From a virus: a DNA stretch of 64,000 bases. The position numbers were made by a program, and so were the translations under genes. This document shows, one piece after another, positions 280 through 59,579 of this stretch. The stretch spans positions 89,953-153,952 of the IMG/VR virus record IMGVR_UViG_3300041964_000083, one strand, 5' to 3'. The notes beneath the pieces were generated by a model. That model was not told the DNA's origin. It was given only the letters and a program-made list of their open reading frames with translations, and made no database searches. Each line of letters starts with the position of its first letter. Position 1 is the stretch's first letter.

Positions 280-519
280 ATGCTGTTATCGGAACTATGC
301 GATCGCGCAAAAATCAAATATTCAACCGCGATCGCAGTAGTACTCGGCTGCAAGAAGCTCAAACCGTCACTGGCAATATTCCACACCTGCCAGCCAAAAC
401 CTGTCCAACTTAAGAAATTCGGCACAGGTTTCCCCAACACCCCATACCGTTGCCCTTGCTGTGATGTGTTGGTTAGAAACCCAAATGAGTTGAATTACGA
501 TGTTTTAGTGAGCAAATGA
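280..519 (+). CDS. Small Cys-rich (Zn-ribbon-like) hypothetical protein
   Basis: ORF with CPCC motif; TGA stop overlaps palindrome at 517. Confidence 0.4.
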   Translation: MLLSELCDRAKIKYSTAIAVVLGCKKLKPSLAIFHTCQPKPVQLKKFGTGFPNTPYRCPCCDVLVRNPNELNYDVLVSK

Positions 520-535
520 CAACGCATCGTTGTCA
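517..535. promoter_or_regulatory. Dispersed 19-bp palindrome, copy 1 of 13
   Basis: TGACAACG-CAT-CGTTGTCA; other copies start at 4721, 5321, 6820, 9714, 10557, 15071, 19549, 28927, 31366, 39533, 52268, 59557. Confidence 0.85.
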
Positions 536-542
536 AACAAAA

Positions 543-567
543 ACACCCCGTCACAACGACGGGGTGT
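543..567. terminator. Hairpin terminator between convergent genes
   Basis: acaccccgtc-acaac-gacggggtgt preceded by an A-tract. Confidence 0.7.
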
Positions 568-673
568 GTCGCCCAAGACAAGCGACGATAAGAAAATTGT
601 TCCAGAATTCTATTCTACTGCCTTGTAAACGTGAACGTTATTTCTTAACTAATGCGATCGCGTCTCCCTTTGT

Positions 674-1063
674 TCAATTTTTGAACCCGTACACGTAATA
701 TTCGTAACCGTTAGATAAGTTGCATCCACCCATAACGCAAATAAGTTTCAACTTGGGGTTATCAAAATACGCTCTCAAAAACGCTTCTGCGTATCGGGCT
801 GTTCTTGGTGATGCGCCTGAATCCTTTGCTTTCTCGCTTGCCGCTTCTGCTTTCGTCCTATCCCATTGCCAGATGCGATCGCTATACTCCCATGTCAAAC
901 CATCTTCTTGATGACCATAAATAACTTGAGGCTTTTTCCAGATTTTTTGCTGATAACTTGGGTACTGAAGGCGTTGATCTGGGTCTAATGTTGGAATAAT
1001 TGCTGGTAGCTGATATTCTTTGGCAATGCCATGCGCCATTTCAAACCATTCTTCGTCCATCAT
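674..1063 (-). CDS. Hypothetical phage protein
   Basis: 129-aa ORF in minus-strand operon downstream of dnaN. Confidence 0.6.
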   Translation of the reverse strand: MMDEEWFEMAHGIAKEYQLPAIIPTLDPDQRLQYPSYQQKIWKKPQVIYGHQEDGLTWEYSDRIWQWDRTKAEAASEKAKDSGASPRTARYAEAFLRAYFDNPKLKLICVMGGCNLSNGYEYYVYGFKN

Positions 1064-1132
1064 CGCTTTATCCTTGCAATTTGTTGAGTAGACGCAAGTC
1101 CTAATAATGTACGGTGCGATCGCGTCTCCCCT

Positions 1133-2290
1133 TTAGTCTCTAATCTGTACGGGCATATCAGGTAAGTCATCTTCAACTCACCTAGGGGTACGAGTATGAC
1201 CGGAGTATCAGCGGTATTAATCAACATCTGAATCTCTGTAGTCGCAAGCGTCTTTAAGCCATCAATTAAGTATTTAACATTGAAGGCTATAAGTAAGTCA
1301 TCACCTGATACCTGAATAGGCATTGACTCTTGTCCACTACCAACATCTTGAGCATCAACCGATAAAGTAAGCTGCTGGTTAATGCTGTCAATGCTGAACT
1401 TAACCGTATTGTTTTTCTGGTCAGCTAGTACGCCGATGCGCTCCACTGCACCAAGTAACTGCCGTCGATCAATTGTGACTTGCCGCTGGAACTGAACTGG
1501 AATCAACTGCCGATAGGCTGGGTATGTTCCTTCTAGTGTGCGACTCGTTAAGCGCTGCTCTCCCTCCTGAAAGACAAGCTGACCTTGCTCAAAATGAAGC
1601 ATAACCGTATCTACTGGTTGCTTGGTGGCAATCATCCGTTCAAGCTCTTTTAGCGCTCTAGTGGGCACGGTGACTTGAAATGGCTCAACACTTTCTTGAT
1701 TGTCTTCGCTCTGATTTTTTGTTTCTACAACGGCAAGGCGATGCCCATCTGTGGCAGCAAACTCTAAGCCATCTTGCTGAACAGTTAAGTGAACACCAGT
1801 TAGTACCTGTTTGGTTTCATCGGGACTAGTGGCAAACAGCGTGCTACCCAACCCTTGCTTTAGCGCTTCAACGGGGTAGGCTAATTGCCGTCTCTGATTG
1901 CACCTGTGGAAGTGCTGGGAATTCATCAGCACTCATCCCGCGCATTTGATAGCGCCCAGATGCTGAAGTTAGCGTGACGATATGGCTACCTTCAGCATCG
2001 CCTTCTCCTGATTTCTCAGATAACGTGATTTCCCCTTCAGATAGACGAGAAACAATATCACTAAGTAGTTTTGCCGGAATGGTTAGTTTTCCGCTCGTTT
2101 CTACCGTAGCGGCAAAACTGGTCTGAATGCCAAGACTCAGATCAAATGCGGTAAGCGTCACCTTCTGTGCTTCGGCATCAGCCACGAGCAGCACATTACC
2201 CAATATTGGGTGGGTAGGACGAGAGGGAACCGCTCGACTTACTAGAGAGAGGTTTGTGTTGAGTTCGCTTTGGATGCAGGTTAGTTTCAT
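1133..2290 (-). CDS. dnaN: DNA polymerase III beta sliding clamp (frameshifted near 1875 and 1160)
   Basis: MKLTC..SRAVPSRPTHPILGNVLL, AATDGHRLA, EGTYPAYRQLIP, IAFNVKYLIDGL; restoring the indels gives the usual MPVQIRD* end. Confidence 0.93.
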
Positions 2291-2325
2291 GGTTTTGTCC
2301 AATGTTGGTTGTTGTGTGCGATCGC

Positions 2326-2577
2326 CTAATAACTGTCAGTGCCTAAAATCTTAGATTTTGGTTTGGGTTTGTTTACCCGCCACTTTTTAAAGCTACGTTC
2401 GCTATACCATTGAGGAGGACTACCATTCCAAGAAGCAAATACTTTTTGGTTGTCGATATCAACCTCAATTATTTTGAGCGTGTAGAGCGCGCCGTATGAA
2501 ATCTTGACCACACCCATCTGCTGACGACGCACTTCATAGACGATTTGCTCTGGCTTAAGTCGATTAATTGATGCCAT
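2326..2577 (-). CDS. Hypothetical phage protein
   Basis: 83-aa ORF in operon. Confidence 0.6.
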   Translation of the reverse strand: MASINRLKPEQIVYEVRRQQMGVVKISYGALYTLKIIEVDIDNQKVFASWNGSPPQWYSERSFKKWRVNKPKPKSKILGTDSY

Positions 2578-2614
2578 GTTTATGCCTCATTAATGAAAGT
2601 TAGTTGCAAATAAA

Positions 2615-3037
2615 TTATGTGCGATCGCGCTCCTCTTTATCTGGAAAAGTTGCCCAAACAGGAACTTCGCCTAAACAAATCCAAATAAACAAGTCTTCCC
2701 AGTACCCAGATTGAGCCTGAAGAGTTATTGATTCTGTTAACAAAGAAAGCGATCGTGCATTACGAAATGAGCAAGCGTGCGATCGCTTTACAACTTTAAA
2801 AGGTATATGTGCCGTACCCTTAAAATTGTTGTGTATAGAATCTGAATCCACAAAAACGCTCATTGGATGTACGTTTAATTGTTGTGCTGATTCATACATT
2901 TGCCGAGTGATGTCAAACAGCAGTACAACTTCATCACCAATCATAAAACTGGCAAATGAAGATAAATCGTTACCGTCGTATAGATTGAAACTACAGTCTA
3001 TTGCAGTTTCGTATTTGCGAGATTGAAAATATACCAT
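2615..3037 (-). CDS. Hypothetical protein (likely start 3037)
   Basis: ATG preceded by AGGA-CGCGATCGCAC. Confidence 0.55.
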   Translation of the reverse strand: MVYFQSRKYETAIDCSFNLYDGNDLSSFASFMIGDEVVLLFDITRQMYESAQQLNVHPMSVFVDSDSIHNNFKGTAHIPFKVVKRSHACSFRNARSLSLLTESITLQAQSGYWEDLFIWICLGEVPVWATFPDKEERDRT

Positions 3038-3054
3038 GTGCGATCGCGTCCTGT

Positions 3055-3507
3055 TTAAAACAAATTTAACTGTCCTGGAACTTCTGCTAAACATCGCTCC
3101 ACTTCATCAATCACAGCTTTAGCGAAGTCTCTGATAAGTGTGTCGTGATAGTAGCCAAACTCTTCATCCGTAGGGCGACCCCACCAACCCGACTCGTGGA
3201 TGATATCAACAGCAAGAATACCCCCATTGGGAATATCGAGGTAAATACCCCATCCTCTGTACGGTTGGATTTCGTTCTCAGGATAGTCACACTCCTCACC
3301 CATATGAATAAAACCAAATTGGTCTACAAGCTGATCAATCCTGCCAGCTAATCCAGTCAAATGAGAGGCTCTTAGCTTGTTGGTGTCAATTTTGAAAACT
3401 TCAGGCAACTCTAACAAGACACCACCACAGTCTTCATGCTCCATCTCACTTAAGTTTTCGAGGCTATCGATGATTTCGTCACAGCGGGAACAACGGTACT
3501 TAGTCAT
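3055..3507 (-). CDS. Hypothetical protein with N-terminal CxxC and C-terminal clamp-binding-like QLNLF
   Basis: YRCSRC...HEDCGG; ends GQLNLF. Confidence 0.65.
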   Translation of the reverse strand: MTKYRCSRCDEIIDSLENLSEMEHEDCGGVLLELPEVFKIDTNKLRASHLTGLAGRIDQLVDQFGFIHMGEECDYPENEIQPYRGWGIYLDIPNGGILAVDIIHESGWWGRPTDEEFGYYHDTLIRDFAKAVIDEVERCLAEVPGQLNLF

Positions 3508-3668
3508 GTGCGATCGCGTCCTCCAATCTTTTCGTAAATAAACTCTCTAACTGCATCCGCCATAGTGGTTTTGTTTTTTTGACACCACTCAGCAAATGCC
3601 TCTTTGTCGGATTTCTCCAAATGAACATGGATATCCGCAGGCTCTTTATATCTCTTAGGTCGTGGCAT
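3504..3668 (-). CDS. Ribbon-helix-helix (CopG-like) regulator, 54 aa
   Basis: Manual translation MPRPKRYKEPADIHVHLEKSDKEAFAEWCQKNKTTMADAVREFIYEKIGGRDRT; divergent from 3801 gene. Confidence 0.75.
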   Translation of the reverse strand: MPRPKRYKEPADIHVHLEKSDKEAFAEWCQKNKTTMADAVREFIYEKIGGRDRT

Positions 3669-3800
3669 TTCTTTAATTCGGTCTATGGGTTATACTATAT
3701 ACCATAAACCAATAATTGCAAAGCAAAAGCGATCGCGCACCTCGGACTGGAAATCTGGTTACGCGATCGCCTAGCACTACCCAACTACTTAGGAGCACCA

Positions 3801-4705
3801 ATGGAAATCATACGTCGCGTTGACAACAACGTCGAGTTTTACACAGTAACTGCTACCGGAAAATCTGGAATGAGTCAAAGTGGTTTATCAATTCTTTCTG
3901 GAGTTACCCGCCAAGCTATTATCAAAATCGAAAAGACCCTTGTAACCGAAGCACCATCTAAAACGCTGGAAAGGTTTGTGGGTAAGGATTTTACCCTTGT
4001 AACCGAAAATGCAATGATTGATGGTAAACCAACCGGAAACCTCAATGTTTACGCTTCGCCGTTTTGCGGAGCAGTGATTCGTCACTATGCATACAAAGGT
4101 AACGATACGGCACAATATAGCCTTGAACAGTTCTCTGATATGGGGATAGAGAAGTGGATTCAAGAGATTACTGGATGGACTAAACCCAATCAACCGTCTC
4201 AAGCATCAATGGTTGGGTACTGGGCAGAGCGGCAGCGGCTATTCATCCAGAAGACTACAATCCCTAGTGGGTGGTTCTGTGTCTTTGAGGAATTGGCTAA
4301 GTTGATGTGGCAGCTTGAGAACTTGGGTATGTTATCCCCGACTACAGTCCAGTAACCAACAAACGGATTATGCCCGATATATCGATTGGTAAAATATTCT
4401 GCAAATATATGCGGAAGAATGGCTACGCTGTTGACTCTACTGTTCGCAGCTACCCGCATTATTATCCCGGATGGGCGTTACCCGTAAACGCTAACATTTA
4501 CCCCAATGCTTGGTTAGAAGTGTTTCGAGCTTGGTTTGATGAGCAGTGGAAGCCGCAACGGTTGGTTAAGTATTTAGGAAAGCGCGACCCCGATAGTATG
4601 CCTTCAATCTGCAAATTGTTAGGTTTACCTGAAGCGCCAGTGCAACTTGAACTACTTACTGTTAAAAATGGCGAGATTCTAGTACTCAAAGATTGCAACA
4701 GCTAA
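3801..4705 (+). CDS. KilA/antirepressor-like protein with BstA-like C-terminal domain (frameshift near 4325)
   Basis: Joined frames read IPSGWFCVFEELA..GYVIPDYSPVTNKRIMPDISIG..YPHYYP..IYP..FRAWF..KYL. Confidence 0.6.
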
Positions 4706-4769
4706 CTCAATTATCTAGACTGACAACGTTTCGTTGTCAGTCTACCACTAGAACCAATACCCAAACCTT

Positions 4770-5300
4770 ATGTCAACCTACACAGAACTCCGACAAGAAC
4801 TAGATCGCATTGAGAAGTATATTCAAGACGCGATCGCGCAATTAGTCAACGCTAAAGAACCAAAGGACAAATTGCGAGAAGAATTAAATCGTGTGATGGG
4901 CGAACAAATCAGAGTGCGAGTTGAGCTATCCAGTTTGCTAGAGCGTGAAGCAAAGGAAATTGCTGCATCATCCGACCTTGACGATATTAAATTCTTGTAC
5001 CGGGGGAGACGATATTCGGCAAGTGGTTGGTGGCACGTCTACTACGAGAAGTGCCAAGTCATCGAACGTAAGCCCAATTATCTCACTGTGGTGTCTCAAG
5101 ATATGGATATCCCAGGCTTTTATAAAGGTGGAAAGTTTCGGGTTAAGCGTGATGAGCTTCAGTCTGAGGCAAAGCCTACCATAGCCGACATGGAGAATTC
5201 TTTTACATCGAACCCCTTAGCGACAGTTCACCCCTCCCCGGTAGTGCGGTCATTGGCTCAAACCTTACGGCTACTCCAGAGCAAGGCGCAATGGTGCTAG
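4770..5300 (+). CDS. Hypothetical protein, coiled-coil N-terminus (3' end possibly frameshifted)
   Basis: ORF track; bracketed by palindromes at 4721 and 5321. Confidence 0.55.
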   Translation: MSTYTELRQELDRIEKYIQDAIAQLVNAKEPKDKLREELNRVMGEQIRVRVELSSLLEREAKEIAASSDLDDIKFLYRGRRYSASGWWHVYYEKCQVIERKPNYLTVVSQDMDIPGFYKGGKFRVKRDELQSEAKPTIADMENSFTSNPLATVHPSPVVRSLAQTLRLLQSKAQWC

Positions 5301-5452
5301 GTACACCCCATCAATTACGTTGACAACGAATAGTTGTCATTTGAAAGCCCACCCTCAGCGATAGGGTGGTTTTTGTTTGGAGATGGTGCGATCGCGCAAT
5401 ATTAAATAGTTGGTGCTGCTTATTCCAGAATGATTGCTGTGTCTAAGCTTCG

Positions 5453-5761
5453 ATGGAACCGTTACACCTACTCCTCAAATCAGAGACGGTTCAAGCTCCA
5501 AATCTAGGTAGTGTATTAATTGTATGCGATCATTCTAATATGGCTGGAATTTGCTCAAAACACCAACACCACGAGGTTGGATGCCCGCTTTGTGAGGCGT
5601 CACCAACAGATTTGTTCCCTGATTGGCACGAGAAGAAAGCTGCTGCTATACTGGCTGGAACTCAGGTGTGTGCGTATTGTGGTTTTGAATCATACAAAAC
5701 AACTTCATCTTGCCCAAAATGTCGGGCGCATTTTCCTGAAGATAAAAGTTTGCTGAATTAG
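5453..5761 (+). CDS. Multi-CxxC zinc-ribbon protein
   Basis: CPLC, CAYC, CPKC motifs. Confidence 0.55.
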   Translation: MEPLHLLLKSETVQAPNLGSVLIVCDHSNMAGICSKHQHHEVGCPLCEASPTDLFPDWHEKKAAAILAGTQVCAYCGFESYKTTSSCPKCRAHFPEDKSLLN

Positions 5762-6546
5762 ATTTGGTGTGATCGCGTATCAATCCACTCCGGCGACACA
5801 TCCGCAGATTCCTCAGTATCTAAGCAAACTCCGCCAAAGATGTTGTAGGAAATACCATTTTCCCAGTACACAGCAACGTGTTTGGGGTCTACTTCTGGTT
5901 TGCCAACGCTGTCAGTCTTGCGACGGAATCGGGTTACCCCTTCAAAAACAGCGTTGAAGAGCAGCCGGACGATCGCGCCTCTATGTTTAGGTAAATCGTG
6001 CAAATCACTATGCCAGCGCCAGCAGAAGAACTCTTCTAAGCTTTCGTAGAGTATCAGTGCCTTTACCATATCGAAGTTTTCAATGTCGGGTGCTGTGCCG
6101 CGCTTTTTCTCACCAGGGTTGAAACTCTGCTTTTGGTAGCGGAAAATCCCAAACACATCAGCAAGCATATCCCGCATTTTCCACATAGTTGTTCGTCCAG
6201 AGGCAGCACCCGTCCAATGCTCTTTGAGGTAAGTGCAGATGGCTTGCTGTGTGATGTTGAAGCACTCAACGCCTTGTCGTGCGATCGCAGTGAGTCTATT
6301 GGTTACGTGGTGGCGTGTACCTTTCTTCTTCAGGCTTAGGGTATCCATTGCGGCACGGTATAGGTAAGCGTTGAGTACGCCCATTGCCGTTAGCACCTGC
6401 TTCTTAGTCCAGTTGGCGACGATACCGAAGATGTCTTGTCGAATGCTATGGAGTTGCGATCGCGTCGGTAAGGTTAAGCCAAACCCTGTGCGAACACTTG
6501 TACTCTGTTGATTTGCGGGAAATTGCATTATACTTTCCATATTCAC
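5758..6546 (-). CDS. Putative winged-HTH DNA-binding / replication-initiator-like protein, paralog A
   Basis: Clear similarity to 13858..14793 (WTKKQVLTAMGVLNAYLYRAA vs WSKEKILTTMGLLNILIYRAA; YLKEHWTGAASGRTTMWK vs YLKTYWKGANTGRTTLWK; LPKHRGAI vs LPEHKGAI). Confidence 0.6.
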   Translation of the reverse strand: MNMESIMQFPANQQSTSVRTGFGLTLPTRSQLHSIRQDIFGIVANWTKKQVLTAMGVLNAYLYRAAMDTLSLKKKGTRHHVTNRLTAIARQGVECFNITQQAICTYLKEHWTGAASGRTTMWKMRDMLADVFGIFRYQKQSFNPGEKKRGTAPDIENFDMVKALILYESLEEFFCWRWHSDLHDLPKHRGAIVRLLFNAVFEGVTRFRRKTDSVGKPEVDPKHVAVYWENGISYNIFGGVCLDTEESADVSPEWIDTRSHQI

Positions 6547-6652
6547 GGATGGGAAACCGAGAATTTATTGAAAGCCGTCGAGGGGTAAGAATGCTCGGCG
6601 GCTTTCGCTATTGGTTGAAATTATCGCACAAAACTCCGTCGAAAACCAAAGA

Positions 6653-6788
6653 TGAACGCTTAAGCCTCTTTATTAATTTTGAGTGAAGATTTTCTTCTTT
6701 CCAACGAAGTTTTGTCTTTCTAGCAGGGTTTGTCTTGTTAAAAAAAATCAATTCAGACAAACTCCTCATCCCAAAGCTTAAGCGTTCA
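6653..6788. repeat. 13-bp inverted repeats 110 bp apart
   Basis: tgaacgcttaagc at 6653-6665 and gcttaagcgttca at 6776-6788. Confidence 0.85.
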
Positions 6789-6847
6789 CACCTTGTTAAA
6801 ATAAGCTTTCTGCAAAATTTGACATCGTTTCGTTGTCAGCATTAATT

Positions 6848-7057
6848 TTAATCGTCTGCCATCTCATATCCTTTCAAGCTTCTAACAATGCGATAAATAA
6901 CCCCACAATTTTCGTATTCAACATACTTGTTAGATAAGTTTTCAAGTATTGCCCACCCTAATCGCTCTGTTCCCATAGTCCAATTAGGATTACTGACAAC
7001 CGTCCACTGACTTTTATCAACCTGCCGACAAATTAAATATTGAATCGGTTTTTTCAT
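6848..7057 (-). CDS. Hypothetical protein
   Basis: 69-aa ORF. Confidence 0.5.
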   Translation of the reverse strand: MKKPIQYLICRQVDKSQWTVVSNPNWTMGTERLGWAILENLSNKYVEYENCGVIYRIVRSLKGYEMADD

Positions 7058-7089
7058 ATTTCGTCAAACTAAATCAGAAGCGATCGCGT

Positions 7090-7344
7090 CTAATCGTCTC
7101 TCAAATTTCCATTCTCTAGGGCACGCTCAACAAGTAAGTCGGCTGCCTCTAAAATACTTGTACCAGTTGCCCAGCAGGGGTTGGCATTCAAAGAGCACCA
7201 GTCGGTTAAAGCTATTGCTAGAGCTTCTTCTAGTTCACCGCTTCGTTCTAACTCTCCCTCAAATTGCACTGGGGTACTAACACAAGTACAAATTAACTCA
7301 ACACCCATATCTTTTAGTGTTATCAGCAATTCATCAGTGTCCAT
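7090..7344 (-). CDS. Hypothetical protein
   Basis: 84-aa ORF abutting recombinase stop. Confidence 0.55.
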   Translation of the reverse strand: MDTDELLITLKDMGVELICTCVSTPVQFEGELERSGELEEALAIALTDWCSLNANPCWATGTSILEAADLLVERALENGNLRDD

Positions 7345-9471: not shown

Positions 9472-9716
9472 CCTTATCAACAAGCTGCCCTCGCTGCTAT
9501 GGAGAGTCAACGCTATTTCACAAAAGCCAGTACAAGGGCGACATCTTCAAGTGCAAATCTTGTTTGATTCCTCATCCAACAAAAGAGGAAAAGATACCGC
9601 TGTTGTGGTTTTGGGAGAGCGATCGCTTATGGGAAGGATTAGATCAACCGGAAGGTGAAAATAAGCCGGAACTTGTCAAGGTAATCTTAGGAACCGAGCC
9701 AGAGAAAATTGTTTGA
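9468..9716 (+). CDS. Zinc-ribbon protein
   Basis: CPRC...CKSC. Confidence 0.6.
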   Translation: MTLSTSCPRCYGESTLFHKSQYKGDIFKCKSCLIPHPTKEEKIPLLWFWESDRLWEGLDQPEGENKPELVKVILGTEPEKIV

Positions 9717-9741
9717 CATCTAATCGTTGTCAGTTAAAAAT

Positions 9742-10104: not shown

Positions 10105-10109
10105 TTTGC

Positions 10110-10592
10110 TTATGCAACCTCATCATCCAACACCCAATACTTAAAGGTTACACCCAATGCTGGTGTAGGCTTTACCGCAATACCAACAGCTAGCAAACTC
10201 GCTACACAAATTGCCAGTGTAGGTGTATCAGCCGTAGCATCACAAAACCCCATGTGACAGTGCCAAGCACGGATAGGGTGTTTAAGCCATCCTTTTTCAA
10301 GCGTAAATTCATGATTTGGGTACATCTTTTCTGCTACAGCCCAAGCCAAAGCCATAGAGCGACTTGGATTCCAAGATGTACCACGCAATCCAATACTATC
10401 TACTTGATAGAGCGCCCAACCATTACATTCTTTTGGCTCGAATATCTCGTAGATTAGGATTTCCCCTTCTTCGGGAACGGTTTCATCCCAATCGATTACT
10501 CGCCAACCCATCACCTTCTCGGCAACTAATCGATCTAAAGCGTTGTAAGAGTCAACTGACAACGTTTCGATGTCATTACGGTTTCTTCTCAT
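10110..10592 (-). CDS. Phage ABA-sandwich (BC1872-like) domain protein
   Basis: LDRLVAEKVMGW...WNPSRSMALAWAVAEKM...ADTPTLAICVASL pattern. Confidence 0.7.
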   Translation of the reverse strand: MRRNRNDIETLSVDSYNALDRLVAEKVMGWRVIDWDETVPEEGEILIYEIFEPKECNGWALYQVDSIGLRGTSWNPSRSMALAWAVAEKMYPNHEFTLEKGWLKHPIRAWHCHMGFCDATADTPTLAICVASLLAVGIAVKPTPALGVTFKYWVLDDEVA

Positions 10593-13597: not shown

Positions 13598-13617
13598 AGC
13601 TACATTTGAATGTGCGA

Positions 13618-15048: not shown

Positions 15049-15161
15049 TGTGTAAAGATATGTAACAAGCTGACAACGAATCGTTGTCAGCTTGGGGCGT
15101 GGTTGTAGCTTAAAATGAATAGTGAGATCGCACTATTCGAGTTAAAGCAAATAGCCCAACT

Positions 15162-19461: not shown

Positions 19462-19564
19462 AGCTGGTATAGGTTTTGAGTTGCAACTACTTCAACTTCT
19501 AACCTATGTAGTAGTTCAATCGACTGAATCACTCGAAATTGCATCGGCTGACAACGATTCGTTG

Positions 19565-19780
19565 TCAGTCATCGGCTGTTGGGTTGTTTAGCGATCGCGC
19601 ATACCTCTCTACTAACTCGCTCCGACTAATCCCCAACCTTGTAGCTTCGGCATCAAGATTGGTGCGTGCCGTAGGCGTAAGCGATAAGTTGACATTTACC
19701 TTAGCTTCGCCATGTTCTGTTCTAGCCTCCCCTTTCTTCGGTTTTGTTTTAGTGAATCTTGTTTTTCCCATTATTGACAA
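19565..19780 (-). CDS. Ribbon-helix-helix regulator
   Basis: KVNVNLSLTPTARTNLDAEATRLGISRSELVER. Confidence 0.85.
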   Translation of the reverse strand: MSIMGKTRFTKTKPKKGEARTEHGEAKVNVNLSLTPTARTNLDAEATRLGISRSELVERYARSLNNPTADD

Positions 19781-23864: not shown

Positions 23865-23897
23865 GTAAGACTACCCAACTAACAACTAATCGATGTT

Positions 23898-23924
23898 AAA
23901 CCCCACTAAACGTGGGGTTTTTTG
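23898..23924. terminator. Bidirectional intrinsic terminator
   Basis: aaaccccac-taaac-gtggggttttttt between convergent genes. Confidence 0.75.
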
Positions 23925-28847: not shown

Positions 28848-29013
28848 CTTTCGCGATCGCGTACTACTCCTTAAAGTTAGGAGAAGATATTGTGCGATCG
28901 GCTGAAACACTCACTATTGCATCATCCGACAACTATTCGTTGTCAAACAAAAACCCTTTTGATTTAATCAAGAGGGTTGTATACGAATTATTCAGATGCG
29001 GTGTTTATGTGAC

Positions 29014-31361: not shown

Positions 31362-31381
31362 GATTTGACAACGAAACGATG

Positions 31382-31636
31382 TCAAGGCTTAGGCGATTCG
31401 TTTGAGATTTCATCGGAGAGAATGTGCAATCCTGTGCCTTCTTGTAAAATTACAGTGTTGGTTAGTCCAGTTGAGTAGTGGCGCAGGAACTCCTCTTTCG
31501 TCTTACCAGAAGCTTCCTGATCCATCAGGTACGTTGCGATCGCGTCTTCACTCCCCTCCAGTAGTTCAACCTCATTATCTGTAACTTTGAACTTGGCGAG
31601 TATTTCGCCTCCGCTAAGAATTTGTGCGTTGAACAT
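31382..31636 (-). CDS. Hypothetical protein downstream of portal
   Basis: 84-aa ORF. Confidence 0.55.
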   Translation of the reverse strand: MFNAQILSGGEILAKFKVTDNEVELLEGSEDAIATYLMDQEASGKTKEEFLRHYSTGLTNTVILQEGTGLHILSDEISNESPKP

Positions 31637-38613: not shown

Positions 38614-40380
38614 ATGATCATCAACTTAGCCAAAACCGTACAGACTGAACTAGCAAGCGAAGACGACGCATATATTCATCAGGAATACAGGATAAAGCGC
38701 ATCAGTCAGGATGAATACAGCAGCCTAGCTTGGCAACACCGCAAGGATACATCAGATCAGGGTGATATTCCTATCGTTTTTGAACGTCGAACCGTTCGCA
38801 CTGTTGCTGGAGTAGAGAAGCCGGATGAGTGGGAGTTGTTCGACTTTAGCGGTAAAGCGGCAGTGTTCCTACTAGATCGTGTACCCACCCACGCTAGCAA
38901 TGAGAGTCAGCATCCCATACACGAAAGCTTAAAGGTTTGTGTTGAAGCTATACGGGCATTAGAGAAGGAGAAAACCGATCTAACGTATTGGTTTGAATCT
39001 GAGCCTAGTACATGGAATAAAACACGGCTACAAGCTAAATATGCGGAAGAGTTCGAGACACAACTCAAGCGATCGCGTTTACATAAAGCATGGAAAGAAA
39101 ACCGAGCAAACGTTGATAAAGTCGCCAAGATTCAGGAGCGAGTTACAGCAGAGTATCGGGTAGAACGCGATCGCATAACCACACGCCTAGAGGAGATAGA
39201 GAAGGAGATTACAACGCTTCGAGGGAGCTTTGAGGATGAAGTTTTTCAGCTACTAACAGAGAAGCCGGAAGAACCCACTACCACCACACAACCGAAACAA
39301 AACACCATGATCGCAGATATCCCCAACCTTACCCAAGAACAACAACACACCGAGGAGAAAGGAGGGATCGAGATACGGTTTAAGTCAAGAGTACCAGAAG
39401 AAACTGTACAACCGTTGCGAGATATGGGTTATAAGTGGGCAAGGCGTAAACCCTCTTACCTATACGCAAAGTATACAGAGCAAAGATGGAATTGTGCGAT
39501 CGCGCTTGCTGCAACATTGAACGGTGAGCAAATGACATCGGATCGTTGTCAGTCTACCGAATCAGAAACAGAAGAAGTGGAAGACGCGATCGCACAAGAT
39601 ACCGTCGAACCAGAGCAAGCTCCGAACATTACCGTAGATAACTCCGAACATTACAGCACGACTCCGAACATTAGCCCCATAGATAGCGAATCTAGCCCGC
39701 TAGATAAGCCTGAGATTGTACATACACCATCAGATTTGCAACGCTTTGATTTTACAGGTATCACGCTGGAAGTTTGGGAAGCCCCCCAGTTCGGTGCTTA
39801 CTTTGTAACCGATGAAACAGGAAAGAATATCAAAAGTAATGAAGATCGCTTATTTCATGCGACAAGCCACTATGAAGCCGCTGTAGCCGCGCTTGACTTG
39901 TGGGAACGTAATCAAGAACTAGAACAACTCAAGGCTGAACTTGAGCGCACCAAGCAGGAAAACCAGCAACTTAAGGAAGAGATCGAACGACTCACCCCAC
40001 CACCCACACCCCCAAGCGGTAAACCACCAGAGCGATCAAACAACGTTGTTGAGCTTTCAGGTAAGCGCGAGGAGAAGGCAGCAGCAACGCCAATCAGCGA
40101 AGCCGAACAAGTGTTGATTGATATTGTCAAAGCTCAATCAGAATGCTTCGGATCAGATGTCGTGGCACTACTTGAAGAAAACCGTGCATTGATGCGGAAT
40201 GTTCTGGCAGAGCAAAAGCCAAAACAGACACGCAAGCCTAAAACAGAGAAACTCGCACCAGTAGCGGCAAAGCCACGGGGACGCCGCAAAAAGGACAAAG
40301 TTGTAGAGGGTCAAATGGCTTTATTCAGCTTCTCAGACTTCACCAAGATGCCTCCGAAGCGGGAAGCCCTGTCTCTTTAG
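38614..40380 (+). CDS. Polyvalent-protein-like multidomain protein; native C-terminus displaced by IS
   Basis: EEKGGIEIRF..P....LRDMGYKW...YAK domain; coiled coil; removing the IS gives ...FSDFTQLNLFAV* (41678-41702). Confidence 0.6.
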   Translation: MIINLAKTVQTELASEDDAYIHQEYRIKRISQDEYSSLAWQHRKDTSDQGDIPIVFERRTVRTVAGVEKPDEWELFDFSGKAAVFLLDRVPTHASNESQHPIHESLKVCVEAIRALEKEKTDLTYWFESEPSTWNKTRLQAKYAEEFETQLKRSRLHKAWKENRANVDKVAKIQERVTAEYRVERDRITTRLEEIEKEITTLRGSFEDEVFQLLTEKPEEPTTTTQPKQNTMIADIPNLTQEQQHTEEKGGIEIRFKSRVPEETVQPLRDMGYKWARRKPSYLYAKYTEQRWNCAIALAATLNGEQMTSDRCQSTESETEEVEDAIAQDTVEPEQAPNITVDNSEHYSTTPNISPIDSESSPLDKPEIVHTPSDLQRFDFTGITLEVWEAPQFGAYFVTDETGKNIKSNEDRLFHATSHYEAAVAALDLWERNQELEQLKAELERTKQENQQLKEEIERLTPPPTPPSGKPPERSNNVVELSGKREEKAAATPISEAEQVLIDIVKAQSECFGSDVVALLEENRALMRNVLAEQKPKQTRKPKTEKLAPVAAKPRGRRKKDKVVEGQMALFSFSDFTKMPPKREALSL

Positions 40381-43727: not shown

Positions 43728-46700
43728 ATGTATTCATTCCAAAATCTAACCCGCCCCACAGGAACAAAAGCCAAGCTACAAGCCAACCTTGAGGCAGTGA
43801 GACTGCTCAAAGAGCTAGAACACCATACACCCACATCAGCCGAGAAAGATATACTTGCTCAGTTTGTAGGATGGGGTACAGTTGCCAGCGCGATTAATAA
43901 AGAAGTGCTAGAGCTTCTGCCCAACGCTGACTTAAATAGCGATAACGCTTTCCAAACTTCTAAGCCAATTATCGAGGCAATGTGGGAGGTATTAGCCCAG
44001 CTTGGGTTTACTAGCGGGCGGATATTAGAGCCAAGCGCAAATATTGGTTTATTTCCTGGACTACAACCGATTACGCATAGAGAAAAATCTGAATGGTGTT
44101 TAGTTGAAATTGATCCAACCGCCAGCGCGATCGCACAACACCTACACACCGACGTGATCGTTTATCCCAAAGGTTTTGAGAAAGTACCCCTACCCAGTGA
44201 GTTTGATTTAGTCGTTGGTAACTTTCCATTCGGTAAAACCGCACCGTTTGATCCCAATTATACAGACTTCTCATTATCTCTTCATAATTACTTCTGGCTA
44301 AAATCCTTTGATGTTTTGCGAGTCGGTGGAATTGTTGCAGCTATCACCAGCACTGGAACGCTGGACACCAAGCCAGAAGTATTCTGTAAGTTATTGGCTG
44401 AGAAGGGGGCTAAGTTAATCGATGCAGTGCGACTCCCCAACACAGCATTCAAAGATATGGGTACAAGCGTTACTGCTGACCTTATTATCCTACAGAAGTC
44501 AGCCACACCCCAGTCTGGAGTGTGGCTGGAGACAGTTGAAAGCGAGGTTTTAGATAACAACGGAAACCCGATTGAGATAAACCGCTATTTTGCCGAGAAC
44601 CCGGATAAGGTGCTCGGTACTCTCGCCAACTGTACGCTGTATGACGGCGATCGCATAGCGGTTAAAGATGACGGGCGAGATATTAAGCAAGCAATCATTA
44701 AAGCATTTGACATCGAAACGATGTCAGTTTACAAACCGTTACGCAATCCAGTCAGCTTACGGGGGAAACTTCTGCCATCTGAGTTAATTGGTATTAACCC
44801 GTATTCATTCTTACTTCAAGACGGAAAAGTTTACCAGCTACGACCTGATGAGGGTTTAGTGTTGGTAACGCTGAACTCAGACCGAATTAAGGCTGGGTTA
44901 GCACTGAAGTCCACCTTAACTGAGCTTGTAGAAGCGGAAGTAAATGATCGAGAGTGCGAGGGGTTGCGATCACGTCTTAACTTCCAGTACGACCAATTTG
45001 TAAGGCAGTACGGGAACCTACTCAACCCGTACAAGAAGACTCGATCTATATTCACAGACGATAGCGAACTCTATTCGATGCTTTTTGCGCTAGAGGAGAA
45101 ACATGAACTAGAGGATGAGCTGTCAGAAGAAGAGAATCAGGGCTTCGGTGAAGAAATACCTAAGACTCGGAAAAAACTAAAAAAGGAGGTTTACTACACC
45201 AAAGCGGATATTTTCTACAAGAAAGTATCGGGAAGCATCAGAACGCGATCGCACGCTATCACTCAACCCATCGACGCGGTGCATGAGTGCTTAGACAGCT
45301 TAGGTTATCTGGACATCAAGCGAATAGCCGCACAGTTAGACAAGAGTGAGGAAGACGCGATCTTAACTCTTAAGGCTGAGGAGCTAATGTTTTTTGACCC
45401 ACAATTAAAAAAGTGGGTAGTACGGGATGAGTACATTAGTGGTGATACACGCGCCAAGTTACGGCTAATCAGAACGATTAAGCAACTTGATCCGAAGTGT
45501 TTTGCGGAGTGGAAACTAGCTGATAATGAAAACATTCTGACTCGTAGAGACAGTAAGGGGCGATACGTTAATATTTCCCCTTACCTGCTTCCCCCCGCTA
45601 GCGCTGAAATTAAAGCCGATATCGCCCACCGGTTAAAGATTCAGTTTGATATTGACTGCGATGAAGACCCAGAAGCCTATATAAGAGTTGGACTTGGAGC
45701 TAACTTTTTATCAACTCAGGATATAAAAGAGTTTGCCGCTCATATTATTGGTTCTCTTAATGCACAATCTATCAAGTGCGATCGCGTACCAGGATTGGCG
45801 CTTTGGGCAGTCAAGGGCGACAAAAACCTTGCAGCTAAATCTCAGTATGCATCGGAGGGTAGTAGCGGTAATGGTAAGATGGACGCCTTAAAGCTGCTTG
45901 AACATGGCTTAAACCATGCACCCATCAAAATCAAGATTACCTACAAGGCAGCAGACGGTACAGAGTACACCGATCAAAAGGCTACTGAAGAGGCAACAAA
46001 CAACGCCGTAGCAGCACTTGAGCGAATTAAGACTGAGTTTAAACAGTGGTTGTGGCAATGCCCTGAGCGGGCATGGAGAATTACACAAGAATACAACCAC
46101 CTTTATCCACGTCCATTACGGCGCACATATGACGGTAGTTTTTTAACACTACCAGACAGCAACGGTGCAATTAAGCTTAAGACGCATCAGTTAAATGCTG
46201 TAGCACGAATGCGGCAAACTAATCGCTGTTTTCTGCTGCATGAAGTTGGAGTAGGAAAAACATTTAGTCTGATTGCTGGCGCTTATGAGTCAAAGCGGTT
46301 AGGGAAAGCTAATAAACCGCTAATCGTAGTTTTGAAGGCGACATTAGGGCAGTTTGCCGCCAGTTACCGCGCACTTTACCCAAACGCTAAGTTACTAATA
46401 GCTGATGAAGATAGCTTCAACGCCGAGAACCGAAACAAACTAATTGCGAAAATCCAGACAGGTGATTATGACAGCATCATCATGACCCATGATCAGTTCT
46501 ATGCAATCCCTATCAGTTTTGCCGCCAAGATGCAGTGGATTGAAGGGCAGTTGAAGATAGCTCAAGACTATCTGAGTACTGGTGATAAGGCGGATCGTCT
46601 GTTACATCGGGAACTAGAACGACAAGTTGAAGACCTACAAGACCAGTTGAATCAGCTCAAGATTGAAGAAGAGATTGCAGCCGTTAAGCATGATGCGATC

Positions 46701-51421: not shown

Positions 51422-51601
51422 TGTCTAGTCGATTAATGAGTTCAGTGTTTGCGGCGCTAGTAGGTGAGTAGAGGATGAGTTAAAACTACCTACCCTAGCC
51501 TGTAATTGGCGTCACAGTACAACTGTTGCGCTGGAAAGAAACTCACTGGCAAAACAGAGAGGATAGTGAAAGAACACGGATTTAGAGCGGAATTAGTGAC
51601 A

Positions 51602-52165: not shown

Positions 52166-52270
52166 TTCGATGTTGCCGCGATCACAACATCGCTCGGTGG
52201 TGGCGGACATCTTAACGCCGCAAGCTGTGCGGTTGACCCAACAGACGAACGAATTAAAATATTTGTTTGA
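52166..52270 (+). pseudogene. DHHA1-domain C-terminal remnant
   Basis: FDVAAITTSLGGGGHLNAASC in frame after the HAD gene TAG. Confidence 0.65.
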
Positions 52271-52293
52271 CAACGTTTCGATGTCAGTCTGTC

Positions 52294-55521: not shown

Positions 55522-55800
55522 CAATTGATCAACTAAAGACTTGGGGAAAAAGGAATGAAAATCAGAACTAGGGGAAGTTTCTATTAGTCCATCTACATGG
55601 AACTATATGAAATACAATCCCATCCGAATTTGTTCTTGTTCTGCTTGTCGTCGTGGTAGTCTTCGTCGCTTCTACTTCAAAGTAGCTAATCGCAAACTTC
55701 GCCATCGCAGTAAGCAGCAACTCAAAACCCTCAGCGATTACGAAGCATTTGAAAAAATATTGATTGCTGGAGGATACACCGACTAAACTCAATACTTTCA

Positions 55801-55830
55801 AAAACCCCTATTAACACCATAGGGGTTTTT
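55801..55830. terminator. Terminator hairpin
   Basis: aaaacccctat-taacacc-ataggggttttt. Confidence 0.7.
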
Positions 55831-55871
55831 CTTTGGAGATATGCTAAAGGGAGGAAGAATTACCCTAAAGT

Positions 55872-58800
55872 ATGTCGCGATCGCAATACGCCTCAGCCAC
55901 AACCCCACCTGCACCCACTCTTACCGTTGGAACCGGAGCAGCCGCCACACAATCCGGAACAAAATACGTATGGCTATACAACCGAACTAGAGCAGGTGTT
56001 ACGTTATTTTCACCTGCTACGAGTATTGCGATCGCGCCTACCCAATCACTAAAAGTTACCATCCCCGCTGCTGTTAAAACACCAGCGTCAGATATTAGAT
56101 ACACCGGGATAGTGCTATCTAATGACAGTAATCCAACCAATGGTGCTGTCGTCGCTTGCTATTCTGGAAACTTACCTGCAACCATCACGCTCGATAAAGA
56201 CGCACATTTTGCCGTTGGTGTAACTGCACAGAAGGTAGCAACACGGAATACGCTACCCAATGATCGGATAGTGGGGATGAGGCGGTACGTGGAGGGAGAA
56301 GCACTCATCTTAGAGTGGTCGGGTACTGATTGGAAGGTAGTGCAGCCGCAGACGCTAAACCCGTACCTTACAAATACGTTGGGGATTGGTGGGTGCGATC
56401 GCGCATTAAATGCCATAACTGACACGACGGGTATCATCTTCCCTGACTACGACGGGAATGGGGGAGTGAGTGAGCGCGTTGACTATTGGATCGTCAACGA
56501 TACCCCCTTACCTCTCCCCACTTCGGTAAGAATCGGCATTACCGCAGCTATTGATAAACTTCCATTTGCGCCTGTACCCAATGACTCAATTCTAAAAGCT
56601 GGGTTACTACAACTGACGTTTTTAGGGTACGTCAACACAACTACGGGGGCATTGGATACAACAGATGCACCGGTTACCGTGACATACCAAGGGAATAACC
56701 CAATGTCACTGACATTACCCAGAGAACTACCACCCAATCATGCTTATGTGTTGGGAATACAGGCAGAGTTTCGTAACTCCGACTTACATAACACAGCGCT
56801 GCAAGGGTCGTTAATTCAGATTTATCCGTATTTTGAAGAGAATTACTCCATCTATGTCCCATTTGGTGACATATTCGGTGACTTTGTTTCAAGAGATGGC
56901 GATCGCCGACGCATCGTACCATCAGGTTCAGGTTTAAACCTTAAAGCACTATCCGGTAGCGGGTGCGTCAAGAGCTACGGCTTTAAGAATGTTGGTGAGA
57001 GCCTTGTTGTAGGGCTTGCAATAAATACCGATAACCAAAAGGTTTTAATCTCCAACAACGCAACGTGTTTTGTTGGAAGTGATGTGGGGGACACAACAGC
57101 ATTACGGGCTATAGTCTCAACCGTTAATGGTTCAGGTAGCGCATCGAGTTGGAGTAGTCCAGTAGCGTTGAATACCGCATCGAGTTTAGAACTAACCCTC
57201 ACCCACCCTACTGCTATTCGCGCCAGTTACCCCGATGTAATCGGTGGAATATCCGCAACACTCAATGCGCTAAAGGTGCGGGTTTATTTGCGGGATACGG
57301 CTACTGGAACAATTCATTATGCCGAGGCATTGATTTCGGGGTTATCGGATGAAACGGTACTTATTGGATCGGTTATCGGAACGATTAACTTTTTACCCGC
57401 TGTTGCACAAGACTTCGGATTATTCGATCCACCAAGCTACACCTCAGTATTAATGCCCGGAGGCAGTAGCCTACCTGTTGGTAACTTTGAAATTGCGATC
57501 GCGTATTTGTACGAAAATACCGTAACCAAAATCAACCACTCGCTTGATGCAGGTTGCATCGATGAGTGGGAGACAGATTTTGTTGAACTGCTAAAAATTC
57601 AAAATAGTTGGGGAAGTACGGTTATTCCGGCGTCTGGACAAAGTGTTGATGATGCGATTCGCAATGTTAGCCAAGGAGACACAAGCAATGGACAGACACG
57701 CCGAGTAGTCGGCAACCCATTTATCTTCTATGACGCAACATTAACGTCAGCCGAAGTGTTGCTGGGAAATTGGAATAATCGCGTATGGCGTCCAATTTGG
57801 CGCACACCAGAACAACCCGGACGCTGGCGGGGGGATATTGGGATATCGGTAAGCGGAAGCATCTTGTCCTACGACGCTCTAATGCTTGACTCCCAAAGCA
57901 ATAGACCAGCTACAGATAATTCACAACTTGCGCTATTTAACGAAAGCGGTATAGCATCACTACGGATGCCAAATTCTGGTGCTGTGTATCCTGTAGCAAC
58001 ACTCGGATCGCCTTCTAGTATCCGCGCTAACAACGCTTTAATCAACGGGTTATTCCAAGTCAGTCAAACTGCAAATTCGTGGACGCTAACAGCAGGTGCA
58101 GGCTTTAACTACATTGCTGACCTATGGCATGGAGCCGCAGGTATTGCAGGTGGTGCAACCGTTTCAATTGTTAACTTCCTTGTGACCGATGGGAGTATTG
58201 GGGCAGGTACGGCTAATGCACTGCGATGGAATCAAACCACTGCCGCAAACGACAATCCGAGGTTGCGATCGCGTATTGAAAGTGTGGCGACGTTAGCTGG
58301 ACATGCTGTAACCCTTGTCGTTTTACGCTGTAGCCACCGCACCAATCACCATATCAACTAACTTCTCTCAAAACTTTGGCGTTGGGGGAGTGGTGCAGCC
58401 GATGTCAATCCAAAAAGCTTCACAGTTGGAACGACGCGATCGCGCTATACGTATACAACTACAATCCCTAACCTCAGCGCTAAAGTAATCGGCACGGCAG
58501 ATGACAGCTTGGATGTAATTTTCAGCTTACCTGCGGGCAGTTTGTTCCAAATTGATATTGATTCCGTGGAGTTGATTATCGGCAATACCCCTAGTTTTAT
58601 TACCCCACCACATATATCCCAAACGCTCAACGGGTGCTTGCGGTACTTATATCGATTAGCGGGTAGTGCAAATCAAGCGATCGGGTCAGGGCGTGCCAAC
58701 GTTGCCAATATTGCCCAAATAGCTGTCAACTTCCCAACTCCTATGCGTACTGCACCGAAAACTCTCAGGGTTTAATGATTTGATACTCAATGCAAATGTC

Positions 58801-58959
58801 GCTGTTACACAGGTAGCCTTAAATGGTGTTGGCGTAAACAGTGCGACGGTAGAATTAACAACAACAATCGCAGCAGGCGGCGCGTGTATAGGTAAGCTCA
58901 ACTCAGCCGCTAGCTTTGTAATATTTGATGCCCGGATGCCGCTCAGCTTAAAACCATGA
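55872..58959 (+). CDS. Large virion/tail-fibre protein (frameshifts after about 58310)
   Basis: T/S/G-rich; C-terminal NALINGLFQVSQ..YIADLW..CLRYLY..FPTPMRTAP tail-fibre pattern spread across frames. Confidence 0.7.
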
Positions 58960-59522
58960 ACAGAGAAGAATTAATCAACCTTTGTAAGTACGACTTCCTC
59001 ACCTACAATGATGCTTTAGCTTTCTCTCCGTATCAGTGCGATCGCATTAAGTACAGAAAGGAAGAAGAACCTTTTGTTATTTGTGATCTAAATTCATACC
59101 CAACAAATGCCCTACCAGCCACCTACGAGATTCGCATTCAGAAAAACTCGTTCGGATTCTACAGCTGGGTTACTAATTGCAAAGATGATCACGCTTTAAT
59201 TAGTGAGTACAAAACTAAACCTCAGTTTTATACAGAACACGAGATTAAAGACACAGAATCAGCCAACTTTATCTGTTCAACTATTGAAAATATTATTGCC
59301 AGCACAGGTTTACTTGCTGGTGTGACGTGTATGGAGGAGTTTGAAGACCACAAACATTTTATCGTGGGGTTTACCGCTTGGTCTTTAAATCCGGCTATTT
59401 TCCTTAATTTTTCAATATCCAACGAAGAGATAGCTATGCGTGACCAACAAGGGAAAGTTAATTACCTGTTTTTGGTTACAGAACATTTGTTACGCGATCG
59501 CATGAAGCTCATGCAGCTATGA
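58956..59522 (+). CDS. Hypothetical protein
   Basis: 188-aa ORF coupled to tail-fibre gene. Confidence 0.6.
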   Translation: MNREELINLCKYDFLTYNDALAFSPYQCDRIKYRKEEEPFVICDLNSYPTNALPATYEIRIQKNSFGFYSWVTNCKDDHALISEYKTKPQFYTEHEIKDTESANFICSTIENIIASTGLLAGVTCMEEFEDHKHFIVGFTAWSLNPAIFLNFSISNEEIAMRDQQGKVNYLFLVTEHLLRDRMKLMQL

Positions 59523-59579
59523 AAAACCACCAGATTTTACACTGGTGGTTCTAATTTGACATCGAAACGTTGTCAATTG

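Follow-up and report, generated by a model that had tools for sequence, protein, structure and literature searches.

The 64,000-bp stretch analysed here (the window) comprises bases 89953-153952 of the 153,952-bp virus record IMGVR_UViG_3300041964_000083, rated 98% complete, and it is dotted with copies of a 19-bp palindrome, TGACAWCG-N3-CGWTGTCA. These copies are probably docking sites for a dimer of the 'X domain', that is, the C-terminal 300 residues of a 905-aa Dcm-Dam methyltransferase fusion protein that the same phage encodes outside the window (genome 19465-22182). We infer the binding because the gene for X carries the same palindrome, and because related phages have changed all of their copies together.

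The record was scanned with the pattern TGACAWCGNNNCGWTGTCA at up to two mismatches, with shuffled sequence as the expectation; gene coordinates on the phage are from our own simple gene calls. In the window 14 sites were found against 0.04 expected, and none of 100 shuffles reached 14. The whole record holds 25 sites at up to one mismatch (0 for a reversed control pattern) and 28 at up to two mismatches, plus one copy with three mismatches (window 23880), at a spacing of about one per 5 kb; no second recurrent palindrome family was found in the phage genome. An earlier reading of the window made from its letters (the sequence-only reading) had placed all of its 13 copies correctly, including 28927 with its two mismatches, while overlooking the perfect site 44708. 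Its proposal of a phage-wide system also holds, as the sites are dispersed over the whole record and are kept, with a shift of dialect, in related phages.

The consensus of the copies is Y-TGACAWCG-NAW-CGWTGTCA-R: the base 5′ of the site is T or C, the base 3′ of it is A or G, and the middle base of the 3-nt centre is A or T in every copy. Information content is high across the 19 bp and falls to background level 2 nt beyond. A larger repeat was rejected, as was the remnant of a miniature inverted-repeat transposable element (MITE), a doubt raised by the earlier reading itself, since flanks are unconserved past 2 nt. Nearly all half-sites (43 of 48) lie within palindromes, and the five isolated ones, against eight expected, show no enrichment. 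The choice of A or T at position 6 is independent between the arms (15 AA, 3 TT and 10 mixed; expected 14.3, 2.3 and 11.4), and the arm mismatches are A-A, T-T, C-A, T-C and G-A, never a G-T wobble. Because half-sites are almost confined to dyads, position 6 varies independently and wobble pairs are absent, two protein subunits on double-stranded DNA fit the features of the site better than a selected hairpin does; the earlier view that the 8-3-8 symmetry suits a dimeric DNA-binding protein is thus borne out. Two of the isolated half-sites, at genome 85374 and 85393, are 19 bp apart and ~200 bp from the full site 85170, and this pair may be a variant site with another spacing.

The HIP1 octamer GCGATCGC occurs 247 times in the phage genome against ~2 expected, and the capsid protein is 50% identical to that of the Aphanizomenon phage vB_AphaS-CL131. 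Therefore the record represents a tailed phage of a cyanobacterium. Searched by capsid protein, close relatives were absent from IMG/VR, and the single metagenome match is the same phage. In the 41 kb read of CL131, no copy at up to three mismatches and no recurrent palindrome was found.

The X domain and its in-gene palindromes

Searching all phage proteins against the palindrome loci of Crocosphaera, one of the few bacteria with copies, returned two matches: the phage tyrosine recombinase (window 7345-8301), which is 51% identical to a Crocosphaera recombinase, and the C-terminal 300 residues of the 905-aa phage protein, which match the neighbouring Crocosphaera open reading frame (ORF), the one holding the palindrome. 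The phage gene 19465-22182 itself carries three copies, at 21284, at 21521 and, as its stop, at 22180. Copy 21521, which encodes LTSNHCQ, aligns with the identical Crocosphaera palindrome (LTTNRCQ), and the same codons in 10 Calothrix homologues are palindromes of other sequence, two of them imperfect. The sequence-only reading could name no cognate protein; the X domain of the Dcm-Dam fusion, encoded ~68 kb before the window, is now a strong candidate.

In the 905-aa protein, X is preceded by two methylase parts, a Dam-type domain and the C-terminal portion of a C5-cytosine methylase; in Pfam scans residues 180-905 of the protein match Dam only, and its first 178 residues match the C5-methylase family only. 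The N-terminal part of the C5 methylase lies in the upstream ORF 18776-19495, which overlaps 19465-22182 by 31 nt (Pfam positions 13-165 in the first ORF and 244-312 in the second), and relatives have a single protein of 1054-1551 aa; a sequencing error could explain the split, as could a frameshift or a programmed shift. Neither ParB_N (PF02195; E up to 1) nor a ParA-type ATPase (PF13614; E up to 0.1) was matched in the phage genome, while control genomes do match, 14 of 14 in the case of ParA, so that a partition system of ParABS type, considered earlier, is unsupported. Two window genes that are putative winged helix-turn-helix paralogues (5758-6540 and 13858-14793) have no Pfam match, and profile search links neither of them to X.

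Homologues of X number 750+ at E below 1e-5 and are mostly ~300-aa proteins of filamentous cyanobacteria, many of them plasmid-borne (121 places on 69 cyanobacterial plasmids). No Pfam family was found among them, none of the 32 tested matches a ParB family, and a search of 50,697 phage records with the X domain gave no match. In the 29 X genes that were read with their DNA, an 8-3-8 palindrome in the linker is perfect in 21, carries one or two mismatches in seven and is absent in one; it lies at one shared set of linker codons, with conserved VVDNL on one side and LPT on the other, where by our own estimate ~0.0015 perfect palindromes of this layout are expected by chance. There are at least 12 distinct arm sequences (for example TGACAACC, TGTGATCC, TGTGAACG, TGTGTCCG, TGTCCACA and TGGGAACA); most retain the outer TG/CA, and the usual centre is AAT or ATT. 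Both arms change jointly, and the arm classes track the classes of the helix encoded just upstream, which is the putative recognition helix.

Some X proteins have two or three copies, seen as repeated linker peptides, and one Calothrix plasmid paralogue has two perfect palindromes of TGACAAC type upstream of its primase-helicase/X operon together with a near-copy in the gene. X genes are often found downstream of primase- or helicase-like replication genes and sometimes beside a tyrosine recombinase, as in a Stanieria plasmid and in contig L238. A gene that by eye is PrimPol-like, upstream of a recombinase/X pair in Crocosphaera watsonii (L185:2742-3608), has a perfect in-gene 8-3-8 palindrome of its own, TGTGTCCA-AAT-TGGACACA; in-gene palindromes of such style are therefore not confined to X genes.

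A search for longer relatives recovered further Dcm/Dam-X fusion proteins, with X domains 63-97% identical to that of the phage. The fusion-bearing contigs that were read are phage-like, with the fusion beside DnaB and DNA polymerase, and two of them were read beyond 20 kb. The first relative (contig G244:C295; 130,130 bp; X domain 72% identical) has a nucleotide-metabolism and replication module in common with the phage, and only 27 genes of the two are reciprocal best hits. With the pattern left open at positions 8-12, it holds 22 exact matches, against 0 in the other 8.3 Mb of its assembly. Its dialect is T8/A12, that of the phage G8/C12: T occupies position 8 in 44 of 50 half-sites, versus G in 45 of 56 in the phage (p 4e-14). 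Its in-gene copies are 237 bp apart, exactly as in the phage; one forms a perfect T8/A12 dyad, and the two arms of its partner disagree, with T8 on one side and C8 on the opposite side. Almost all of its sites (23 of 25) are intergenic, and 11 give stop codons, two of these for both convergent genes. In each phage a copy also marks the end of the same two orthologues (70% and 45% identical).

In the second relative (X domain 63% identical), whose putative recognition helix differs most from that of the phage, the fusion gene contains TGTACACG-AAT-CGTGTACA, and the same palindrome recurs, perfect, at a convergent junction 11.5 kb away. A third (76% identical) has two in-gene copies plus one in a convergent junction beside the portal gene. 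From these networks it follows that the dispersed network is conserved in the lineage, its dialect following that of the in-gene copies. As to the relatives themselves, the 210 HIP1 copies of the 130-kb contig, like the abundance of this octamer in the phage, mirror the oligonucleotide habit of cyanobacterial hosts, and a Y1_Tnp gene seen in a relative belongs to an IS605-type insertion.

A different kind of relative is P0131 (1292 aa, encoded on a 4979-bp ENA contig), which has RNase HII and ParB_N domains; here a module containing ParB_N replaces the N-domain of X, and the same C-terminal part of X (56% identical) is retained behind it. By analogy, this swap points to a comparable DNA-binding role for the X N-domain, not to membership of the ParB family.

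Four parts make up the AlphaFold model of X: an N-terminal helical domain modelled with confidence (predicted local distance difference test (pLDDT) at least 90 over residues 1-70), a linker of low confidence (domain residues 92-106) that adjoins the palindrome codons (residues 86-92), a barrel and a helical C-terminal part. The barrel is of KOW/Tudor/SH3-like type (Z 8-9.7), a fold that says little on function, and for the N-domain nothing significant was returned by Pfam, PDB sequence profile, Foldseek or VIA-align. Modelled as a homodimer, the N-domain reached an interaction prediction score from aligned errors (ipSAE) of 0.71, against 0.00 for the best control; in a benchmark that mark was attained by 20 of 30 proteins solved as pairs and by 1 of 23 solved as single chains. 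The dimer runs share at least 95% of their contacts (pLDDT of the partner at least 87), and the predicted interface is formed by the long first helix, with the putative recognition helix left free. The models thus support a predicted dimer of the X N-domain.

Sites at gene ends

Although the phage genome is 10.6% non-coding, 21 of the 28 sites are non-coding (p 2e-15), and the median distance from a site to the nearest gene 3′ end is 25 nt versus 112 nt for random intergenic positions (p 2e-4). Sites occur at 8 of 20 convergent junctions, 12 of 162 tandem ones and 1 of 19 divergent ones, and some are the sole DNA separating two convergent stop codons. Eight copies supply, through their outer TGA or TCA, the stop of an adjacent called gene. 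Among the five window sites that the sequence-only reading had taken to supply stops, 9714, 19549 and 31366 do so for called genes and 517 for a 79-aa ORF, while 52268 closes merely a 34-codon extension: gene 51566-52165 ends at its own stop and is followed by 34 open in-frame codons (52163-52270), with no start codon of their own, up to the TGA of the site, an arrangement suggestive of a recent nonsense mutation or of an extension made by read-through. The same reading counted two intragenic copies where the window has three (10557, 39533 and 44708).

Genome-wide, the 29 strongest terminator-like hairpins include 10 that are no more than 25 nt from a site, all but one of these within 10 nt, and one of the 10 is itself a palindrome copy (genome 54626); in window 1-20000 the top two such hairpins are 8-10 nt from sites 517 and 5321. 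Relative to transcription, copies are found on both sides of terminators. By intrinsic-terminator criteria, only the copy at genome 54626, 1 of 29, passes the terminator scan alone, the others having four G-C stem pairs, no T run and separate terminators alongside. Adjacency to terminators, earlier put forward for six window sites, is upheld for 517, 5321 and 31366, whereas at 28927, 52268 and 59557 hairpins are visible but fall below the strict scan. A promoter reading by way of the TTGACA in the site was rejected: of the 6 sites in the first 20 kb, one combines with a consensus -10, promoter-like matches are no more frequent than in shuffles, and divergent regions are avoided. Where the earlier reading saw no obvious overlap with a promoter, only one copy, 9714, is part of a promoter-like consensus match.

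The window copies are listed in the table. Copies in pairs bracket single genes and islands. One such island, on the + strand within a - strand gene run (window 19549-23898), has a copy at each edge and contains, besides an IS630-like transposase (22282-23385), a 292-aa gene with 50% identity to an X-adjacent gene on a Nostoc plasmid. When sites are oriented by the 3-nt centre, the ten minus-oriented ones among 29 are never adjacent to each other, and eleven successive sites, window 517 to 31366, alternate in orientation (one post hoc p of ~0.01 for both); no relation was seen between centre orientation and the strand of flanking genes.

Table. Copies of the palindrome in the window (positions in the window; + and - denote strands)
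Site	Match	Genes at the site	Terminators and other features
517..535	perfect, centre CAT	TGA ends a 79-aa + ORF (missed by the gene caller)	8 nt from - strand terminator hairpin 543-567
4721..4739	perfect	15 nt past one gene's stop, 30 nt ahead of the next start	forms a pair with 5321 around a 176-aa gene; the orthologue of that gene in the related phage likewise ends at a copy
5321..5339	1 mismatch (C12 to A)	20 nt past a stop; convergent junction	10 nt ahead of + strand terminator 5349-5369
6820..6838	perfect	9 nt past the stop that closes the - strand gene run with the tyrosine recombinase (7345-8301)	
9714..9732	1 mismatch	TGA is the stop of a + gene, a - gene ending 9 nt further; sole sequence between the two convergent genes	
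10557..10575	perfect	within the first 12 codons of a - strand gene	
15071..15089	perfect	only copy in a divergent intergenic region	
19549..19567	perfect	TCA supplies the stop of a 68-aa ribbon-helix-helix-like gene on the - strand	left edge of the + strand island
23880..23898	degenerate, 3 mismatches, with a symmetric G2/C18 change	right edge of the island with the IS630-like transposase	+ strand terminator directly after
28927..28945	2 mismatches		just downstream of a - strand terminator hairpin
31366..31384	perfect	TCA is the stop of a - gene; convergent junction	terminator hairpin 7 nt off
39533..39551	perfect	inside a 588-aa gene, encoding MTSDRCQ	
44708..44726	perfect	inside a 1209-aa DarB-like gene	
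52268..52286	perfect	convergent junction	followed by a + strand hairpin with a T run
59557..59575	perfect	- gene stop 4 nt off; convergent junction	between a hairpin and that stop

Placement of this kind is also what would be expected of an RNA (or single-stranded DNA) hairpin, be it a REP-like 3′-end element by which transcripts are stabilised or processed, or a protein-independent terminator. Such a hairpin would account for the short distance to gene 3′ ends, for the frequent use of convergent and the near-avoidance of divergent junctions, for the copies that stand tight beside terminator hairpins and for the one that passes the terminator scan itself, and the co-change of both arms across X paralogues is as it would have it. 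It is nevertheless improbable. Arms selected for pairing sit badly with the lack of G-T wobble and with the independence of position 6, and the constancy of the outer TG/CA and of the A/T-rich centre, while the inner bases change, is how related proteins would read the site. Copies stand on either side of terminators relative to transcription, and a hairpin leaves unexplained both the fixed linker position in one protein family and the joint dialect shift of in-gene and dispersed copies.

Other explanations and the weight of the docking reading

Little probability is likewise assigned to the copies being recombination boundaries, either core sites of the tyrosine recombinase (7345-8301) or cassette-exchange sequences of integron- or PeSL-like kind. 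What draws attention to this explanation is the Crocosphaera recombinase with its 51% identity to that of the phage, as it adjoins an X gene with the identical palindrome, and X genes stand beside tyrosine recombinases in the Stanieria plasmid and contig L238 too. The bracketing of genes and islands by pairs of copies, in one case with the IS630-like transposase, would suit it, as would the never-neighbouring minus-oriented centres among the 29 (p ~0.01, post hoc) and the fact that the two phages have merely 27 reciprocal best-hit genes in common, yet two of these end at a copy in both. Yet a homologue of the phage recombinase lies within 1.5 kb of X at only 1 of 40 loci, and 11 of 12 recombinase loci of Calothrix and Crocosphaera are without such a palindrome nearby. 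As a core site, a unit of 19 bp with arms of 8 bp would be short, many centres are identical so that a working recombinase would delete essential genes, and in-place dialect shifts at orthologous junctions fit a co-evolving reader better.

Occurrence of the palindrome elsewhere bears on a third explanation. Scans of IMG/VR and of a set with one genome per prokaryote species gave only single chance-level matches per contig; standing out from the latter were three Calothrix genomes and one Crocosphaera genome, with 2-8 copies (up to one mismatch) per 6-12 Mb and none of the control pattern. Density is thus 0.2-0.9 per Mb in those hosts versus ~160 per Mb in the phage, which exceeds every cyanobacterial genome searched by at least 200-fold; the equal density on the host chromosome that would have refuted the earlier reading was not found. 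Exact copies were found in 6 of 7 genomes of one Calothrix genus versus 1 of 200 other genomes of the order, on which count a general cyanobacterial motif was rejected. The Calothrix copies occupy conserved AT-rich intergenic spots, often right after a stop codon, and at one orthologous spot the site is present in four species, decayed in a fifth and absent in two others; the exact copies extend to TTGACAACG-N3-CGTTGTCAA (G001, G002, G003, G205, G206 and G208; loci L160-L168 and L242-L246). The Crocosphaera copies are located in mobile-element DNA.

That the copies are sites for a host protein, a regulator or a plasmid X paralogue, borrowed or soaked up by the phage, is highly improbable: the near-restriction to one Calothrix genus, the conserved intergenic spots there and the 4-9 X paralogues encoded per host would agree with it, but the density in the host is too low beside that in the phage, the exact palindrome is in no Calothrix X gene examined, the assembly with the related phage has no copy off the phage contig, and the phages bring their own reader candidate with in-gene copies matching the dialect.

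The housekeeping spots of the Calothrix copies include xseA/recA, a ketoacyl synthase/deaminase pair and a D-glutamate cyclase operon, and two of them have a sister palindrome, TGACAACC-N3-GGTTGTCA, at a distance of 38-750 bp. A LexA (SOS) box was considered for the copy between xseA and recA and rejected, a separate LexA-like box adjoining recA. The family of the phage-type tyrosine recombinase has 2-7 copies per Calothrix genome, and one Calothrix plasmid (G002:C3:35476-38704) has three tandem homologues that resemble recombinase-in-trio elements. Literature searches for the motif and for palindromes in cyanophages returned nothing relevant, and CyRepA and CyRepX are different, helicase-type proteins.

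Docking of an X-domain dimer remains the explanation we prefer, and the following points weigh against it. Other proteins of the phage are possible readers, namely six XRE-type helix-turn-helix matches (four above the family cut-off), the ribbon-helix-helix gene and the tyrosine recombinase. Co-inheritance could account for the agreement of helix and palindrome classes, as the association ignores phylogeny. The Crocosphaera X, 33% identical and with a different helix, has the palindrome of the phage, which speaks against a simple code, and the closer homologue P0003 (44%) has TGACAAGC. A complete 108-kb Stanieria plasmid has one copy of its own X palindrome, in the gene only, so that dispersal is not a family trait. 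Fold matches of the N-domain are weak (Z 4-5.5, including sigma region 4, DeoR and the SopB helix-turn-helix; for the SopB-DNA complex Z 4.3, with a root-mean-square deviation of 3.0 over 53 residues), and DUF3102, a lead for this domain from an atlas search, failed a hidden Markov model test. As to purpose, tethering is something we purely infer.

If X does dock at the palindrome, its N-terminal helical domain would dimerise via the long first helix, with one half-site per subunit, and the ~28 sites would retain the methyltransferases on the phage chromosome in preference to host DNA. They would occupy transcriptionally quiet gene ends where binding is harmless, and where a 19-bp site with stop codons in one frame per strand can be tolerated; at junctions where the site is the sole DNA between convergent stops, the bound protein could act as a two-way roadblock or insulator. 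That the sites keep the enzymes on phage DNA is suggested by the conservation of the fusion, the location of its gene in the replication module, the ~5-kb spacing and the scarcity or lack of sites in the host DNA searched. Granted docking, tethering of the methyltransferases is a possible though doubtful main purpose, and roadblock or insulation would be an unlikely one. The sites at 8 of 20 convergent junctions, some with no other DNA between the stops, are compatible with a roadblock; the cyanobacterial host phylum is, to our knowledge, without Rho.

A fuller scenario, which we hold to be speculative and rather unlikely, is that a cyanophage lineage took a plasmid-maintenance DNA-binding domain, fused it to a Dcm-Dam pair and seeded 20-30 palindromes at gene ends that hold the enzymes in cis, as self-addressed epigenetic protection. 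The bound sites would then be two-way stop signs for translation (TGA/TCA) and perhaps for transcription, and the domain would represent a large undescribed family of plasmid proteins with its own in-gene site.

Should X bind the sites, it would define a new DNA-binding family of 750+ members, common on the plasmids of filamentous cyanobacteria, a group with few genetic tools. Each X gene would reveal its own operator, and the 12 or more arm sequences would offer natural orthogonal protein-site pairs for cyanobacterial synthetic biology. This would also be a first example of DNA methyltransferases with a sequence-specific anchor matched by dozens of sites in the same phage genome, suggesting how a phage could aim protective methylation at its own DNA, and it would mean that a regulatory or organisational site can double as the stop codons of convergent genes at both its ends.

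Comparison with known systems

KorB of the IncP plasmid RK2, a ParB-family protein with the ParA partner IncC, is dimeric and has 12 OB operators. As with these, a short palindrome is repeated round a mobile replicon, also far from promoters, as a network and not a single operator. Unlike KorB, the candidate reader here is an unnamed domain on two DNA methyltransferases, with no ParB_N or ParA-like ATPase found in the phage, and unlike OB the phage sites avoid promoters, sit at gene 3′ ends and often give stop codons. ParB-parS and Noc with its binding site (NBS) use palindromes of 14-16 bp, several per replicon, and a site can lie in the reader's own gene (Bacillus spo0J). The likeness lies in a repeated palindrome of which three of 28 copies are in or at the gene of the candidate reader (19465-22182); the difference lies in the 19-bp site with its 8-3-8 layout and in the lack of a ParB domain and of any ParA found.

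The stoperators of L5 and other cluster A phages, to which the sequence-only reading likened the sites, are asymmetric 13-bp sequences whose orientation follows transcription and which are read by the immunity repressor in lysogeny; there are ~25-30 per genome, mostly in short intergenic gaps, and their dialects differ among phage lineages. Many short sites in a phage genome, one candidate phage reader and lineage dialects are common to both. The likeness goes no further, as the present sites are symmetric, the orientation of their centres is unlinked to gene strand and thus independent of transcription, and their candidate reader is a methyltransferase fusion in a replication module.

Repetitive extragenic palindromic (REP) sequences and the bacterial interspersed mosaic elements (BIMEs) built with them resemble the sites in being short palindromes at gene 3′ ends and convergent junctions, beside terminators. 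REP/BIME sequences are host-chromosomal, imperfect, 20-40 bp long, present in hundreds of copies and tied to REP-associated tyrosine transposases (RAYTs), whereas the phage-borne sites are near-perfect, without wobble pairing and tied to an X-domain gene. Copy numbers in hosts also stay far from those of REP, at 2-8 per 6-12 Mb in Calothrix and Crocosphaera and none off the phage in the 8.4-Mb assembly G244. Integron attC sites are imperfect palindromes of 57-141 bp at the 3′ ends of cassettes that lie in one orientation beside IntI, unlike the phage unit of 19-21 bp, which has no conserved flanks and has genes on both strands beside it.

The O protein of phage lambda has four iterons at ori, 19-bp dyads in the linker-coding part of gene O that form one cluster with an AT-rich flank, and in its relatives the sites and the N-terminal domain change together. 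Here, too, dyad sites lie in the linker-coding part of the gene for the candidate binder and co-vary with it, and host X genes commonly stand after primase-helicase genes. No evidence of an origin function emerged, and, unlike those of lambda, the in-gene sites number one to three, 237 bp apart, and are joined by ~25 dispersed ones.

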